Origin: an uncultured Gammaproteobacteria bacterium
GTDB lineage: Bacteria > Patescibacteriota > Patescibacteriia > JACPL01 > CAZRYK01
Direction: 5' to 3'
Assembly: GCA_964604315.1 (NCBI GenBank)
Contig: CAZRYK010000001.1
Coordinates: forward strand, 2,459 to 66,458
Length of the DNA: 64,000 nt
Below, in pieces: positions 5,422 to 64,000 of this stretch; the first letter of the stretch is position 1; every line of letters begins with the position of its first letter. The notes under the pieces were generated by a model. That model was not told where the DNA came from, searched no databases, and worked only from the letters and a program-made list of their open reading frames with translations. Position numbers and translations under genes: made by a program.

Positions 5422-5579
5422 TGTGTGAGTGTGAGTAGTTCGCCCGCCTTTGCTAGAGCTTCGGCGAGGCAAGTATTTAGGGGTAAACTTTGCTCAAGAG
5501 GTTTTAAAAATGTTCTGCCTTGCGCTAAGTACAAAATACTAATTACGCATTACTCAAACTTTGCGTGAGCAAAGTTTAC
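5422..5579 (-). repeat. tRNA 3'-flank repeat element, copy C
   Basis: Reverse complement aligns along its length with the elements at 58987-59156 and 62553-62708. Begins CGTAAACTTTGCTCACGCAAAGTTTG directly after the tRNA-Cys 3' end and ends ACTCACACTCACACA. Confidence 0.7.
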
Positions 5580-5581
5580 GG

Positions 5582-18725: not shown

Positions 18726-18751
18726 AGTTGTCTACCCGTTGTAAGAGGTTA

Positions 18752-18912
18752 GAGCTCCTTTCAATAATCGCTTTCTTGCCATTTTGGATGATCGTGAGAG
18801 CGAAACGCGTAAAGAACGAGGAGGAATAGCGAAACTATTCTGACGAGTTCTGAATGCGTTGTAGCCTCATGAGCGCCAAAAGGGCTGAATCGGGATTATG
18901 GAAAGGAGCTCC
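18752..18912. repeat. IR-bounded conserved structured element, copy 1 (homologous to 58607-58772)
   Basis: Terminal IR AGAGCTCCTTTC / GAAAGGAGCTCC. Shared core GACGAGGAGGAATAG-hairpin-CTATT..GACGAGTTCTGAA.G.GTTG.AGGCC. Lies 26 nt upstream of the rpsF start. Confidence 0.5.
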
Positions 18913-42169: not shown

Positions 42170-43150
42170 TCAAGATCGTTTTAATGCGCGAAAAAGCCGG
42201 TATTTTTTCTCGTTCAAGGGAATTTCCTTGGTGTGTTCAAACGTGATCGTACGCCCACCAAACCCTTCTTTGAACTGCGTAATGCCTGCCCAAGTTCTTT
42301 CTTGTGCAGAAGTTCCGGCAACACCAAAAAAATCATAGTTTTGCGCGCCGTGTTTTTTGGCATCGCACATCGCTTGCCATTGCAAGGCGTACGACGCTCT
42401 TATAGTCCTTCCTCGCTCCGATGACGCACCATGAAGATAATATGCGGTTCCGGCAAAAAGAACAAAAATCCCCACAGAATATGTTATGTTGTCGCGACAA
42501 GCCTCGTAGATCCAAAAGCGTTTTGTGTCAGACAATACCTTTTCCATGTGACGATAATACTTATCCGGATGCGCTTTGATGCCTTGGCGCTTGCTGGTCT
42601 CGTGCAAAAGTTTTAAAAAATGTTTTAACGGTTTTCGTCCGGTATGCGCTTTAATTTCTATTCTATAGCGCGTTGCAAGGCGAATGTTATAGCGCGTTTT
42701 GGATTTCATTTGCGCTAACAGTTCTTCTTCGGTCTGCGAAAGATCGACCATGCGCGTTGCCCATGGTTGCATCATGGGACCGGGTTGTGCGCTCGGATGA
42801 TTCCAAACATCGATAGGATCGTAACGCACAAAAAGCGCTTTGCGAAGATGTGCAGCGTCTTTAAGGTATTGCACAAACGTCTGCATGACATCTTCACGCG
42901 AAACGTCTTGCGCGATTTGTAACGGCCCGCGCGGACAATAAATATACCGTTGCCAAAAACGCCCGGGCATCTGAATACCTTGAACAATAGCCACGGTTTT
43001 CCCTTCCACAACAAAAGCAAGCCGGAAGACTTTACGTTTTAAGGATAGCTGAAACTGCCCCCAAGCCCAGGATTGTAAAAACGTCGGGTGCGGGCTTTTT
43101 TGCACCGCATCGTCCCATGTTTTTTCGTCTGTGATGTGTTCAACAATCAT
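42170..43150 (-). CDS. FemAB-family / GNAT-fold peptidoglycan peptide-bridge transferase-like protein
   Basis: 326 aa; 'FLQSWAWGQFQ' FemAB-like N-terminus; stop overlaps the ruvA start. Confidence 0.5.
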   Translation of the reverse strand: MIVEHITDEKTWDDAVQKSPHPTFLQSWAWGQFQLSLKRKVFRLAFVVEGKTVAIVQGIQMPGRFWQRYIYCPRGPLQIAQDVSREDVMQTFVQYLKDAAHLRKALFVRYDPIDVWNHPSAQPGPMMQPWATRMVDLSQTEEELLAQMKSKTRYNIRLATRYRIEIKAHTGRKPLKHFLKLLHETSKRQGIKAHPDKYYRHMEKVLSDTKRFWIYEACRDNITYSVGIFVLFAGTAYYLHGASSERGRTIRASYALQWQAMCDAKKHGAQNYDFFGVAGTSAQERTWAGITQFKEGFGGRTITFEHTKEIPLNEKKYRLFRALKRS

Positions 43151-43698
43151 CGGGAAAGTTTTTGCAAAGCCGATTTAATTTGTTCTTCTAAAGGAAGGTT
43201 GGTAGGAAGCGTTTGCACAACCTCTCGAATTTCGCGCGCCTTATACCCCAAGGCTTCCAAGGCTTGCGCGGTTTCGTTTTGCGGAACAAAGGCCGTACCG
43301 CTCGAGACTTTTTCTTTGAGCTCGATGGTAATGCGTTCTGCCGTGCGTTTGCCAATGCCCGGCACGTCGGTTAAGAACGCAATGTCTTGATCGTTGATCG
43401 CGGCAATAATTTGTTCTGCGGTGTTCATGCCAAACATGGCCAACGCGGTTTTAGGCCCCACGCCAGAAACGGACAAGAGTTCTTTAAACAACGCGCGATC
43501 GTCCCAATTTTCAAAACCATAAAGCGCGTTAATGCCTTCGCGGATGTCATGGTAAATGACCATGTCAATGACGTCGCCGATTTTCGGTTTGGTAAGAAGC
43601 GACAGCGGCACATGCACTTCATAACCAATGCCACTGACTTGAATCACAAGCGCATTGGCGGATTTCTGAAGAAGAGTTCCGTGAAGATGGCCGATCAT
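43147..43698 (-). CDS. ruvA: Holliday junction DNA helicase RuvA
   Basis: 'MIGHLHGTLLQKSANALVIQVSGIGYEVHV', HhH motifs. Start set at ATG 43696-43698; the longer GTG-initiated track ORF runs into the MITE-like repeat. Confidence 0.85.
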   Translation of the reverse strand: MIGHLHGTLLQKSANALVIQVSGIGYEVHVPLSLLTKPKIGDVIDMVIYHDIREGINALYGFENWDDRALFKELLSVSGVGPKTALAMFGMNTAEQIIAAINDQDIAFLTDVPGIGKRTAERITIELKEKVSSGTAFVPQNETAQALEALGYKAREIREVVQTLPTNLPLEEQIKSALQKLSR

Positions 43699-43737
43699 AT
43701 GCTCGTATCGTATCAAAATTCCTCTCTTTGGCAAAGT

Positions 43738-43920
43738 TATAGACCTCACATTATGAAATAGGACTTAGAAATACAAAAACAAGATGAGATGCGACGGGTT
43801 GGAGCAAGAAAAAAGAGGAAGTGTAGCCATAGCTACATTGAGTGTTTTTTCTTGGGAAACCCGAGCAGATCGCTTGCTTTTTGTATTTATGGAGTACTCT
43901 TTCATAGGGTGAGGTCTATA
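43738..43920. mobile_element. MITE-like near-palindromic element with about 45-bp imperfect terminal inverted repeats, flanked by TA
   Basis: TATAGACCTCACATTATGAAATAGGACTTAGAAATACAAAAACAAG ... CTTGCTTTTTGTATTTATGGAGTACTCTTTCATAGGGTGAGGTCTATA. Central palindrome TGTAGCCATAGCTACA. A second copy starts at 63895. Confidence 0.5.
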
Positions 43921-43956
43921 CCTTGGCAAGAGCTAAGCTCTTGCCAAAATCAAAAT

Positions 43957-43977
43957 GTTCGAAACTCGGTTTCGAAC
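43957..43977. repeat. Conserved hairpin GTTCGAAA-CTCGG-TTTCGAAC (family of three)
   Basis: Same stem and loop at 63334-63362 and 63816-63836; preceded here by the perfect hairpin TTGGCAAGAGC-TAA-GCTCTTGCCAA at 43923-43947. Confidence 0.45.
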
Positions 43978-43990
43978 AACAAAAAAACAG

Positions 43991-44665
43991 TCCCGTGTGA
44001 GGGGGGGGTGGGTGGAGCGACCGTCGTCGCGGGTTTGGTCGGAATTGGCATATCCGAATCCATTGCGCGCCATGTGCCGGCGCTCCACCCGTTTCTCGAC
44101 GAGACCCTTCCTTTTGAGGGATCGATCGCGCCGTAGGATAGGCGCTTTCGACCCCAAGGGGGTCTCGTTCGTTCGCTGGGAGCCGTCGGCTCCCAAATCC
44201 CATAGTCGCCGCGGAGGGACAAAGTCATTCCGGTATGGAAACCGGAACTCCTCCGGGCAACGGTTTGCCGGTGAAAACCGGCAGGGGACTCTCGGGCGCC
44301 CAGCGAAACTGGCCGTATATTAAACCGACGGCAAAAATCTGTCAAGTAAAAAACATGTCCAACACCTTGGTGTTGGACAATAAGCAATTTCATCAAAAGG
44401 GAAGGTGGGTGGGGGTGTGTCCTGTCGTCGGCTCCGGCGCCACCGTAATAGCGCGCGACATTTGCGCACCCCCACCCTTCCTCTCGACCCTGGAACCAGT
44501 TTCCCGAGCGGTCTCGGGGAACTGTGGCGCATCCAAGGCCGTGGTTTCGCGAGCCTAAACCCCGGCAGGGGGCTGACACGAGGCCAGGCATCAACGAAAC
44601 CGACTCTATCCTATGCTCACCTTGCCTTCCCGTCAAGCCCTTACTTGAAGAATCCCAAGCCGCAG
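43991..44665. other. 675-bp GC-rich (about 62%) non-coding block with dense nested helices; unclassified structured RNA or foreign insert
   Basis: All ORFs on both strands are overlapping, Arg/Trp/Gly-rich and low-complexity. Perfect local helices include GGGTGGAGCG/CGCTCCACCC, GGGAGCC-GTC-GGCTCCC, CCGG-TGAAAA-CCGG, GTCCAACACC/GGTGTTGGAC and GGAAGGTGGGTGGGGGTG/CACCCCCACCCTTCC. Confidence 0.35.
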
Positions 44666-44679
44666 GATAGTATAGGAGA

Positions 44680-46677
44680 ATGTCATTATTTAAACTTCGG
44701 TCTCCTTATAAACCCACGGGTGATCAGCCGCAAGCCATTAAAAAACTTGTTGGCGGGATTGAAAAAGGCTACCGCGACCAAACGCTTTTAGGAATAACGG
44801 GTAGTGGAAAAACATTTTCAATGGCTTCCGTGATTGCTAAAGTGCAAAAACCCACGCTGGTGATTTCGCATAACAAAACGTTGGCCGCGCAACTGGCAAG
44901 CGAGTTCCGCGATTTCTTCCCAAAAAACGCGGTGCATTATTTTGTCTCGTACTACGATTACTACCAACCCGAAAGTTATCTTCCGCAATCCGACACCTAC
45001 ATTGAAAAAGAAACGCAACTCAATGAAGAAATCGATCGCCTGCGCCATGCCTCAACGCAAGCCTTACTGTCGCGCAACGATGTGATTATTGTTGCTTCGG
45101 TCAGTTGTATTTACGGCTTAGGCAACCCTGTGGAATACAAAGCCATGGCAAAAACCGTTGCGCGCGGAGAGCATATTAAACGTTCCACACTTTTGCATGA
45201 CTTAGTAAAAATGCAATATGCGCGCAATGCCGTGGATTTTCGCCGCGGCACCTTCCGCGTTAAAGGCGAGGTGGTAGAAATTTACCCCACGGCGTCAGAC
45301 CAACGCATTATGCGTTTGCAATTCTTTGGCGACGAGCTGGAAAAAATTTCTGAACACGATCACCTCACCGGCAATCGGATAACCGATTTAGAACGCGTCG
45401 ATATTTACCCGGCCAAACACTATGTGACGGAATCTCAACGGTTTAAAGAAATCAAGACAGAAATTCTTCACGATCTGGAACAGCAGATCGCAAATTTCCA
45501 GAAGGCGCATTTGCTTGTGGAAGCACAAAGGCTCGAACAGCGCGTGCGCTTTGACCTTGAAATGTTGGAACAAACCGGCTATGTGAACGGCATTGAAAAT
45601 TATTCACGCTATTTTGATGGCCGCAAACCCGGCACTCCGCCCTATACCTTAATCGATTTCTACCCGAAAGATTTTCTCATGTTCATCGATGAATCGCATA
45701 TCACCATTCCGCAAATCGGCGGCATGTATGAAGGCGACAAAAGCCGCAAGAAAAATTTGGTGCAATACGGGTTTCGGCTTCCGGCGGCCTACGACAACCG
45801 CCCGCTGAATTTTACCGAATTCACGTCCAAGGTGCATCAAGTGATTTATGTTTCCGCAACACCAAAACCGTACGAAATCTCACGCTCCAAAGTCGTTGCC
45901 GAACAAATTATTCGTCCAACCGGTTTATTGGACCCAGAAATTTTTATTCGCCCCACGCGCAATCAGGTCGATGATTTATTGGCCGAAGTTCAACAGCGCA
46001 CAAAAAAACACCAGCGCGTGTTAGTGACCACGCTCACCAAACGCATGGCCGAAGAGTTGACGGAATATTTACAAAGCCTCAACATCAAAGTGCAGTATTT
46101 GCATTCCGAGGTGGACACCATGGAACGGTTGGAAATTTTGCGCGACTTGCGTTTGGGCGTGTACGATGTCGTTGTGGGCATCAATTTATTGCGCGAGGGC
46201 TTAGATTTACCCGAAGTGTCGTTGGTGGCGATTTTGGACGCGGACAAGGAAGGATTTTTGCGCAGTGAAACCTCGCTCGTGCAAACTATTGGCCGGGCCG
46301 CGCGTCATGTGGAGGGCACCGTCATCATGTACGCCGACAAAATCACCGATTCCATGCAAGCCGCCATTTCGGAAACCGAGCGGCGACGTAAACTGCAACA
46401 AGCGTATAATCGCACGCACGGCATTACGCCGCAAACCATTGTGAAAACGATTCGCGAAGATCGGTTAAGCGGCAAAAAAGAAGAAGACCAGAAAGCCGAA
46501 GAAACAAACGCCGCAGTGAAACATGTAAGCGACTATTCCAAAGAAGAGTTCGCCGCCGTATTGCGCGAGCTGGAGGAACAAATGATTCTGCATGCGCGCA
46601 ATATGGAATTTGAACAAGCCGCCGAACTGCGTGATAAGATGATGGCGTTTAAGAACGCGCGAAAGAAAAACGTATGA
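44680..46677 (+). CDS. uvrB: Excinuclease ABC subunit B
   Basis: 'GITGSGKTF', helicase motifs, C-terminal UVR domain; 665 aa; RBS AGGAGA. Confidence 0.95.
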   Translation: MSLFKLRSPYKPTGDQPQAIKKLVGGIEKGYRDQTLLGITGSGKTFSMASVIAKVQKPTLVISHNKTLAAQLASEFRDFFPKNAVHYFVSYYDYYQPESYLPQSDTYIEKETQLNEEIDRLRHASTQALLSRNDVIIVASVSCIYGLGNPVEYKAMAKTVARGEHIKRSTLLHDLVKMQYARNAVDFRRGTFRVKGEVVEIYPTASDQRIMRLQFFGDELEKISEHDHLTGNRITDLERVDIYPAKHYVTESQRFKEIKTEILHDLEQQIANFQKAHLLVEAQRLEQRVRFDLEMLEQTGYVNGIENYSRYFDGRKPGTPPYTLIDFYPKDFLMFIDESHITIPQIGGMYEGDKSRKKNLVQYGFRLPAAYDNRPLNFTEFTSKVHQVIYVSATPKPYEISRSKVVAEQIIRPTGLLDPEIFIRPTRNQVDDLLAEVQQRTKKHQRVLVTTLTKRMAEELTEYLQSLNIKVQYLHSEVDTMERLEILRDLRLGVYDVVVGINLLREGLDLPEVSLVAILDADKEGFLRSETSLVQTIGRAARHVEGTVIMYADKITDSMQAAISETERRRKLQQAYNRTHGITPQTIVKTIREDRLSGKKEEDQKAEETNAAVKHVSDYSKEEFAAVLRELEEQMILHARNMEFEQAAELRDKMMAFKNARKKNV

Positions 46678-58606: not shown

Positions 58607-58772
58607 TTTAGAGCTCATCTCAAAAATAGCTTTCAAGACATTTGAGATGCCATTTGAGCCGAAACACTTGAAGGACGAGGAGGAATAGTGGTACTATTGC
58701 GACGAGTTCTGAAAGTGTTGCAGGCCAAATGGGGCTAAAATGGCCGGAAGATTATTTTTGAGATGAGCTCTA
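58607..58772. repeat. IR-bounded conserved structured element, copy 2 (homologous to 18752-18912)
   Basis: 20-bp perfect terminal IR TTTAGAGCTCATCTCAAAAATA / TATTTTTGAGATGAGCTCTA. Same conserved core, with hairpin GAATAG-TGGTA-CTATTG. Confidence 0.5.
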
Positions 58773-58912: not shown

Positions 58913-58986
58913 GCGCGCTTAGCTCAGTTGGTTAGAGCGTTTGCTCGACACGCAAAAGGTCGGAAGTTCGAATCTTCCAGCGCGCA
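58913..58986 (+). tRNA. tRNA-Val (anticodon GAC), with unusual C at position 33
   Basis: Acceptor GCGCGCT/AGCGCGC, D arm GCTC..GAGC, anticodon stem TTTGC/GCAAA with loop TCGACAC, T arm GGAAG-TTCGAAT-CTTCC. Confidence 0.65.
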
Positions 58987-59156
58987 CGTAAATTTTGCTG
59001 ACGCAAAGTTTGGGTAATGAGTAATTAGTACTTTGTACTTAGCGCAAGGTAGGATATTCTCAAAATATCTTGAGCAAAGTTTACCCCTAAATACCCGCCC
59101 GCCACGCAAGCCGAGCATGCGAGGCGTTGCGGGCAGGCCAATTACTCACACTCACA
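58987..59156 (+). repeat. tRNA 3'-flank repeat element, copy V (includes GC-rich palindromic module 59094-59137)
   Basis: Starts CGTAAATTTTGCTGACGCAAAGTTTG right after the tRNA-Val discriminator; ends ACTCACACTCACACA, overlapping the last codons of vapC. Confidence 0.7.
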
Positions 59157-62552: not shown

Positions 62553-62708
62553 ACAACACGTACCGTATGGTACGTGGTCCACGTAAACTTTGCTCACGCA
62601 AAGTTTGTGTAATGAGTCATTCGTAGTTGATACCTAGCGCAAGGTAGAATTTTCTTAAAATCTCTTGAGCAAAGTTTACCCCTAAATACAAACTACTCAC
62701 ACTCACAC
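62553..62708 (+). repeat. tRNA 3'-flank repeat element, copy A
   Basis: After a 28-nt hairpin (ACGTACC-GTAT-GGTACGT) that re-duplicates GGTCCA of the tRNA end, the sequence CGTAAACTTTGCTCACGCAAAGTTTG...ACTCACACTCACACA aligns with copies V and C. Confidence 0.7.
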
Positions 62709-63242: not shown

Positions 63243-63284
63243 CCCGCCCGCCACGCAAGCCGAGCTTGCGAGGCGTTGCGGGCA
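63243..63284. repeat. Isolated copy of the GC-rich palindromic module of the tRNA-flank repeat
   Basis: CCCGCCCGCCACGCAAGCCGAGCTTGCGAGGCGTTGCGGGCA matches 59094-59137 apart from one base; lies 60 nt after tRNA-Pro. Confidence 0.5.
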
Positions 63285-63435
63285 CGCGAATCCGGCATCC
63301 CCGACCAAGAGAGAAAAAAATGAGGCCAAGGGTGTATGTTCGAAACTCGGTTTTGGACATACGATCTGTGGACAGTTTTTTTGCTTAATCGCAAAAAATC
63401 TATTATACTTGAGCTCTCATCACTAACACTTTTTT

Positions 63436-63783: not shown

Positions 63784-63894
63784 ATTCAACAACCGCGAAC
63801 AGTTGCGATGATGAAGTTCGAAACTCGGTTTTGAACATACGGTTCAAGAGGTTTTTGTTATTGCGTTGTAGGTGTACCCTTCCCCAGACTATAC

Positions 63895-64000
63895 TATAGA
63901 CCTCACACTATGAAAGTGAACTTAGAAATACAAAAACAAGATGAGATGCGACGGGTTGGAGCAAGAAAAAATACGAAGTGTAGCCATAGCTACATTGAGT
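63895..64000. mobile_element. Second copy of the MITE-like element (truncated by the window end)
   Basis: TATAGACCTCACACTATGAAAGTGAACTTAGAAATACAAAAACAAGATGAGATGCGACGGGTTGGAGCAAGAAAAAA...GTGTAGCCATAGCTACATTGAGT aligns with 43738-43845; again preceded by TA. Confidence 0.45.

Follow-up and report, generated by a model that had tools for sequence, protein, structure and literature searches.

The Correia elements of Neisseria, also called NEMIS, are palindromic transposable elements of the miniature inverted-repeat kind (MITEs) of 100–155 bp that are flanked by TA and whose ends start with TATAG. Situated beside genes, they are co-transcribed into hairpins that RNase III cuts, have terminal repeats of 26 bp, and carry an internal site for integration host factor (IHF) as well as outward promoters; to our knowledge, no transposase partner has been identified for them. 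The Stowaway MITEs of plants combine a TA duplication and Tc1/mariner terminal repeats with strong hairpin potential and an interior unrelated to that of the autonomous transposon. Here we describe a 183-nt near-palindromic element that lies upstream of ruvA in a 64,000-nt stretch of contig CAZRYK010000001.1 (the whole stretch is hereafter called the window). Its closest described counterpart is RUP of Streptococcus pneumoniae, whose terminal inverted repeats (TIRs) resemble those of IS630-Spn1 and for which mobilisation in trans has been proposed (PMC3049150). Both are short, non-coding, multi-copy repeats with IS630-type ends. Compared by description, RUP measures 107 bp and belongs to one species, whereas the window element is ~182 bp long and is found in several Patescibacteria lineages; unlike RUP, it also has a strongly diverged interior in which pairing is nonetheless compensated.

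Our analysis indicates that the window element is very probably a non-autonomous MITE that is mobilised in trans by a ~1.12-kb insertion sequence (IS) of the IS630/Tc1-mariner family found in Patescibacteria. An IS630/Tc1-type MITE is what the preliminary description had proposed from the window itself, and the proposal is now supported by the IS ends, a transposase, multi-copy spread and insertion polymorphism. The partner IS resembles ISY100/IS630 in having one open reading frame (ORF) that encodes an N-terminal helix-turn-helix (HTH) and a DDE_3 domain, imperfect TIRs, and TA duplication. The window element differs in having no ORF, and the partner ISs (1117–1127 bp), found on Patescibacteria-type contigs, form a separate clade known from sequence. 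The likeness to Correia elements is one of description; here, in contrast to them, a partner IS has been identified and no conserved promoter was found. Stowaway elements differ from the window element in their eukaryotic hosts and very high copy number, and share no sequence relationship with it.

The terminal 12-mers of the complete copy (copy 1; Table 1), TATAGACCTCAC at its start and GTGAGGTCTATA at its finish, pair exactly, as had been claimed, and occur in the 64-kb window only at these two ends and at 63895 (0.07 expected by chance). The element had also been given TA flanks. TA does bound it, in the form TA-TAGACC...GGTCTA-TA, but the quoted 12-mers already include this TA as their two outermost bases; the neighbouring bases are GT and CC for copy 1 and, before copy 2, AC. 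Copy 1 folded at −93.6 kcal/mol on the plus strand (z = −10.6) and at −79.3 kcal/mol on the minus strand (z = −8.2), and on either strand 0/200 shuffles were as good. The near-palindrome is thus real, and the whole element folds, as foreseen, into one long imperfect hairpin, with the central palindrome TGTAGCCATAGCTACA at its expected place. Pairing is not limited to arms of ~45 bp, as first described, but runs along the full length (~70 of the 91 possible pairs). Copy 2 begins where it had been placed and is cut by the window end, and its identity to copy 1 is 94% (100/106 nt) instead of the ~85% given earlier. It matched positions 1–105 of the family profile with 68.7 bits. The same profile scored copy 1 at 147 bits (+) versus 53 bits (−) and revealed no third copy in the window.

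The family was scanned with a 21-nt pattern, TATAGACCTCACNNTATGAAA, which is common to all three ends in the window. It matched 12 loci in a one-genome-per-species collection and 23 loci in metagenomes, and gave no match in viral contigs. The preliminary description had pointed to an IS630/Tc1-family transposase with matching TIRs, and such an enzyme was found. One locus (L032, positions 373–1489; the same IS is present in L049) carries an IS of 1117 bp with the MITE termini and a single ORF of 351 aa. Its product matched the NCBIfam equivalog NF033545, ‘IS630 family transposase’, with 164 bits (cut-off 100), and the Pfam families DDE_3 (1.5e-18), HTH_33, HTH_32 and HTH_29. The first 21 nt of this IS are the MITE terminus. 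The left end of the window element is identical at 21/21 positions, with the AT variant, to the end of an IS remnant in L016, a truncated or degraded copy with 57% amino-acid identity, and at 20/21 to the left inverted repeat (IRL) of L049; a 28-nt stretch of the MITE end is 93% identical to the right inverted repeat (IRR) of L050. Additionally, 13 further loci hold a full-length IS of 1117 or 1127 bp, and TATAGAC[C/A]TCAC stands at both ends in all of them. The ends of the MITE, TA followed by TAGACCTCACnnTATGAAA, are therefore the ends of this IS. More than 1100 relatives of the L032-type transposase were found at E ≤ 1e-30, among which those with names belong to Sungbacteria, Peregrinibacteria and Jacksonbacteria. 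Most relatives sit on contigs of only ~1.1–1.2 kb, in keeping with a repeat that interrupts assembly.

ISY100 is reported to insert exclusively at TA with a 2-bp duplication, and its transposase to bind the inverted repeats through two HTH motifs (PMC2170065). At L041, an IS of 1127 bp (1453–2579) splits a gene for an MvaI/BcnI restriction endonuclease beside its methyltransferase. Excision in silico with one TA kept gave a continuous 264-aa ORF that matched PF15515 over 227/227 positions (2.5e-65), whereas the ORF was broken after 186 codons when no TA was kept and after 196 codons when TATA was kept. Only excision to one TA restores the ORF, indicating that the outermost TA is the 2-bp target-site duplication, as is the rule in the IS630/Tc1-mariner family, and that the element proper starts with TAGAC. 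The TA duplication suggested for the window element has thus been demonstrated for its cognate IS. MITE ends are nearly all TA, and no other dinucleotide is common outside them; since the MITE has the ends of the IS, the same rule would apply to it. As a separate observation, L039–L045 are Jacksonbacteria-type contigs, and in L039 the left flank known from the L041 site meets the right flank known from L044; mixed flanks also occur in L043, L047 and L048. These point to IS-mediated rearrangement or to assembly chimeras.

Pairing of the ends yielded 16 non-identical full copies of the MITE, 179–184 nt long, each with different flanks, so that the number of copies, which had been left for a wider search, is now known to include 16 at unrelated sites. 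Truncated copies were also found. The family was found mostly in metagenome-assembled genomes (MAGs) of Patescibacteria and in groundwater metagenomes; the MAGs bear the labels Saccharibacteria, Uhrbacteria (two MAGs), Parcubacteria group and Patescibacteria group. Bins labelled Gammaproteobacteria (L009) and archaeon (L004), labels that are taken as given and unverified, also hold complete or nested copies, which indicates mis-binning or transfer between hosts. The window itself belongs to a Patescibacteria genome: its UvrB shows 63–67% identity to proteins that carry the names Patescibacteria, Doudnabacteria, Kerfeldbacteria or Parcubacteria. Within the 8-kb loci fetched, a MAG holds two to three copies. 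Two copies in one Saccharibacteria MAG (L001 and L007), which stand on different contigs in opposite orientation, are identical at 181/182 nt, a degree of identity that we take as the mark of recent movement; a third site, L031 in another metagenome, is 97–98% identical. All copies are intergenic or cut off the final codons of a gene, and they often lie 1–70 nt from their neighbours. At L001 (4113–4117) and L007 (5979–5986), the adjacent ORFs, which are release-factor-like and glutaredoxin-like, respectively, have the TAG of the element terminus as their stop codon. These insertions thus clipped the last codons and were tolerated. Orientation relative to neighbouring genes is mixed, ~7 copies being antisense and 4–5 sense, and an orientation bias was accordingly rejected.

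Two copies are themselves interrupted. In L004 (616–962) a small palindromic insert of ~165 nt sits at the apex, and in L005 (1990–2252) one of ~81 nt sits in the left arm, showing that further families of small mobile palindromes exist in these genomes. The loci L008/L022/L029, L006/L013, L018 and L028, which have a single terminus and no transposase, were set aside as truncated remnants or chance 19-base matches. In the literature searched, the coverage of which is incomplete, we found no description of MITEs or of the partner IS in Patescibacteria, and the family is apparently undescribed.

The ruvA site provides the comparison between close relatives. A protein search with the window RuvA gave three of them, L036, L037 and L038, which come from the samples GCA_040960375.1, SRR22387916 and SRR12113420/22. 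The element stands at the identical position upstream of ruvA in L038 (RuvA 99% identical) and is absent there in L036 (91%) and L037 (84%), in which a small GTTCGAAAC hairpin leads directly into the ruvA promoter region. The insertion polymorphism that the preliminary description had proposed to look for is therefore present, with a filled site in the nearest relative and empty sites in the two more distant ones. The contigs of these relatives are only 1–2 kb long, and one of them begins inside the element.

These data bear on a quite different explanation, in which the element is a non-mobile gene for a structured non-coding RNA or a cis-regulatory hairpin and its inverted termini merely form the foot of the stem. 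The very stable fold with covariation (see below) would suit such an RNA, as would the window itself, which holds only two copies on the same strand; the preliminary description had named a two-copy, syntenic structural RNA gene as the outcome that would overturn a mobile origin. The multi-copy, polymorphic distribution excludes that outcome. The termini are identical to the ends of an IS630-family IS; copies occur in both orientations at unrelated loci with unrelated neighbours, including copies 99.5% identical at two loci of one MAG; close relatives differ in presence at the ruvA site; some copies contain nested insertions or are truncated; and the element matched no Rfam family, whether at gathering thresholds or at E ≤ 10. 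Collectively, these results make a resident RNA highly improbable.

The standard IS630/ISY100 mechanism suggests how the MITE would move. The transposase would bind the ~30-bp terminal block at each end, excise the element and paste it into a TA dinucleotide, which would be duplicated. Copy 1 probably inserted between the ruvA promoter and the putative terminator that ends a non-coding transcript upstream, at a distance of 4 nt upstream of the −35 hexamer, presumably leaving the promoter intact. The ~120-nt interior does not derive from the IS, and its pairing, length and internal loops are conserved. Nothing in this scheme changes current concepts of transposition, and the element would be an ordinary kind of selfish DNA.

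Several observations weigh against mobilisation by this IS. With the L032 transposase as query, tblastn found the partner neither in the 64-kb window, confirming the earlier statement that no transposase ORF is present there, nor at any MITE-bearing locus. Similarity between MITE and IS is confined to the terminal 18–28 nt and the interior has no significant match, so the MITE is not a simple internal-deletion derivative of the IS; an origin of the interior from the IS was rejected on this ground. No base-exact empty site of the MITE was obtained because the spacers of L036 and L037 are too diverged, and the 2-bp duplication of the MITE is accordingly transferred from the IS and not seen directly. 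More generally, the case for mobility as a whole is comparative. Finally, 6 of the 16 MITE sites show imperfect direct repeats of 5–12 nt just outside the TA, against ~1.3–1.6 expected, and plain TA duplication does not explain them. Around copy 1 they read CTTTGGCAA and CCTTGGCAA (43726–43737 and 43921–43932); the other sites are L002, L010, L011, L012 and L014, with repeats such as GGTAT, CTAGCT, TTGAC and GGTCG and with one site within a heptamer array. Controls gave 7.9% across loci and 0–4/16 for shifted positions at the same locus. Neither the length nor the offset of the repeats is constant, and full-length IS sites do not have them. A target duplication longer than TA was rejected since the repeats, although enriched, are irregular and missing at IS sites; in this small sample, insertion may simply have favoured spacers that are repetitive locally.

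The foreign interior, the flanking direct repeats beyond the TA duplication and the TATAG start of the termini, as in Correia elements, could also be taken to mean that the element belongs to another class of mobile repeat or is moved by another enzyme, as a Correia/NEMIS-like element, as a repetitive extragenic palindrome or bacterial interspersed mosaic element (REP/BIME) moved by a REP-associated tyrosine transposase (RAYT), or as a fold-back structure born separately in each lineage. This is very unlikely. The ends agree with those of IS630-family ISs at 21/21 nt, and over up to 28 nt, down to the AT/AC variants. The family profile is asymmetric, scoring 150–170 bits in one orientation and ~60 in the other, and this asymmetry is common to all copies in all lineages; it argues for one founder and rules out independent fold-back origins. 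The size and architecture are unlike those of REPs of 20–40 nt. A REP/BIME identity was rejected for an element of 183 nt that occurs singly, has IS630-type ends and has no Y1 transposase linked to its copies.

We therefore regard the element as a MITE of the IS630 type, with an interior whose conservation lies in its structure. The median pairwise identity among copies is 87% in the terminal 31–32 nt and 62% in the interior, where it ranges from 49% up to 100%. The 16 sequences were aligned and a consensus of 69 pairs was predicted with RNAalifold, on which the pair counts rest; 95.9% of the cells are standard pairs. The left terminal block (alignment columns 1–31) is nearly invariant, and helix 1, formed by the terminal repeats, comprises 29 pairs with 96% of cells paired. 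Changes on both sides were observed in 34 of the 69 pairs, compared with 19.8 ± 2.0 in shuffles, none of which (0/500) reached 34, and with at most 16 in slid controls, in which partners were moved by 1–3 columns. Consistently, the covariation score was 0.40, versus 0.14 for shuffles and ≤0.07 for slid controls. Compensatory double changes above both controls indicate that the hairpin itself is under constraint. Near-invariance also extends to the length (179–184 nt), to several of the internal loops and to three short helices made of A/T tracts.

Strand B, the plus strand of the window, folds better in 16/16 copies, by 1–24 kcal/mol, and its helix cells hold 73 G.U against 11 A.C, a count made on the strand for which the structure was predicted. 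Changes that occur in a single copy, and are presumably recent, are symmetric (9 G.U, 11 A.C). Strand-specific selection was thus rejected, since the older G.U excess is one-stranded and the recent changes are not. The apex stem-loop with its T-run passes a loose terminator consensus in 12/16 copies on strand B and 5/16 on strand A; these candidates have modest stems, their T-run is paired to an A-run within the long hairpin, and gene orientation is mixed. No conserved sigma-70-like promoter was detected inside the element, the only one found being the flank-borne promoter of ruvA. A ribozyme or K-turn reading of the GATGAG/GAAAC-like motifs inside the element obtained no support.

These features raise the question of whether the MITE, in addition to being mobile, has been exapted, its hairpin now serving the host as RNA, for example as an orientation-dependent terminator or insulator, as an RNase III or stability hairpin, or as a small regulatory RNA. 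Compensated pairing across lineages whose interiors are only 49–65% identical would fit such a role, together with the near-invariant internal loops and A/T tracts, the one-stranded folding and G.U excess, and the bias of terminator-like apices to strand B. Given distances of 1–70 nt to neighbouring genes, most copies must moreover be co-transcribed. However, their orientation relative to genes is mixed, the recent changes give no sign of ongoing strand-specific selection, and predicting the structure on strand B biases the G.U count towards that strand. Neither a conserved promoter nor an Rfam match accompanies the hairpin, and long hairpins are general among MITEs. Exaptation therefore appears unlikely. 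Improbable to a similar degree is that the interior is a conserved structural module carried across several Patescibacteria lineages, be it an orientation-dependent terminator or RNase III-processed RNA in the compact operons of the candidate phyla radiation (CPR) or a DNA-bending or cruciform device that so short an element needs to join its ends; were it true, the structure of a MITE interior would be under selection across long evolutionary distances. Most likely, the constraint would stem from a property that benefits the element, for example by bending its 180-bp DNA or bringing the ends together, although harmless compact folding in co-transcripts may be an alternative. As a test case for what constrains the interiors of MITEs, the compensated hairpin is a clean one. 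More broadly, the small and tightly packed genomes of Patescibacteria still tolerate mobile DNA, an IS630/MITE pair standing within bases of promoters and stops, and the pair is a marker for strain-level variation and gene flow between lineages.

Table 1 Coordinates of the element copies, their parts and the adjoining gene in the window.
Feature	Position	Strand	Remarks
MITE copy 1	43738..43920	+	Complete, 183 nt counting both bounding TAs; ‘B’ orientation (+ strand)
Left TA	43738..43739	.	Presumed target-site duplication; nearly all copies are TA-bounded, duplication demonstrated in the cognate IS
Left terminal inverted repeat	43740..43768	+	Presumed transposase-binding end; block TAGACCTCACnnTATGAAA..ACTTAGAA
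Hairpin interior, helices 2–6	43769..43887	+	Paired through compensatory changes; unrelated to the IS interior
Apex stem-loop	43820..43839	+	Palindrome TGTAGCCATAGCTACA (43822–43837), then T-run; terminator-like
Right terminal inverted repeat	43888..43918	+	Conserved block TTATGGAGT....TTTCATAGnGTGAGGTCTA; alignment columns 153–183
Right TA	43919..43920	.	Presumed target-site duplication, same basis as left TA
MITE copy 2	63895..64000	+	Left 106 nt only, truncated at the window end; oriented as copy 1
ruvA	43147..43698	−	183 aa from ATG at 43698; homologues have 183 aa and start MIGHLHG/MISHLHG
Promoter-like site for ruvA	43707..43734	−	TTGCCA-16-TACGAT with TG; outside the element

Copy 1 lies close upstream of the probable ruvA start, as had been noted: the likely ATG is 39 nt away. 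The GTG-extended ruvA ORF (43147–43749, minus strand) does begin within the element, in agreement with the preliminary description, and judging from the homologues this extension is probably spurious. For annotation, the element thus accounts both for a spurious 5′ extension of ruvA and for the repeat-induced contig breaks in the closest relatives. The boundary of copy 1 is 4 nt upstream of the −35 hexamer of the promoter-like site, and the −35/−10 arrangement is kept in the element-free L036 and L037, which have TTGCCG with TAGTAT or TACTAT.

On the other side of copy 1, a G+C-rich, ORF-free stretch of ~700 nt is followed by uvrB (44680–46677). Read on the minus strand, the stretch 43950–44650 resembles two promoter-to-terminator units. 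In the first, TTGACG-17-TAGGAT (44636–44608) leads to a hairpin with a T-run (44379–44356); in the second, TTGACA-17-TAATAT (44345–44317) leads to another (43978–43956). The first ~400 nt of the stretch are ~97% identical to L036, despite the 91% identity of RuvA and the diverged adjacent spacer. It matched no Rfam family at E ≤ 10, and we regard it as a candidate source of non-coding RNA, with one or two unknown species. The hairpin at 43978–43956, which can be read as a minus-strand terminator, belongs to a small hairpin repeat, GTTCGAAACTCGGTTTCGAAC, that occurs three times in the window (43957–43977, 63338–63358 and 63816–63836; 0.01 expected by chance). Two of its copies lie less than 60 nt from the two MITE copies, and L036 and L037, which lack the element, have the hairpin at the orthologous position too.

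The window contains other repeats. A second palindromic, MITE-like family of ~164 nt, with ends TAGAGCTC...GAGCTCTA, is present at 58609–58772 and 18750–18912, one copy standing just upstream of tRNA-Leu. Its interiors are ~71% identical and include CGAAAC / CTGACGAG-like strings; when it was checked for hammerhead-like motifs, Rfam gave no significant match, to a ribozyme or otherwise. A repeat of ~110 nt occurs three times with 88% identity (5468–5580 on the minus strand, 58985–59099 and 62580–62689), its copies lying at or just past the 3′ ends of the tRNA genes for Cys, Val and Ala. Additionally, a G+C-rich repeat of 49 nt (59094–59142 and 63243–63291, 94% identical) follows one of the ~110-nt repeats and is also found after tRNA-Pro.

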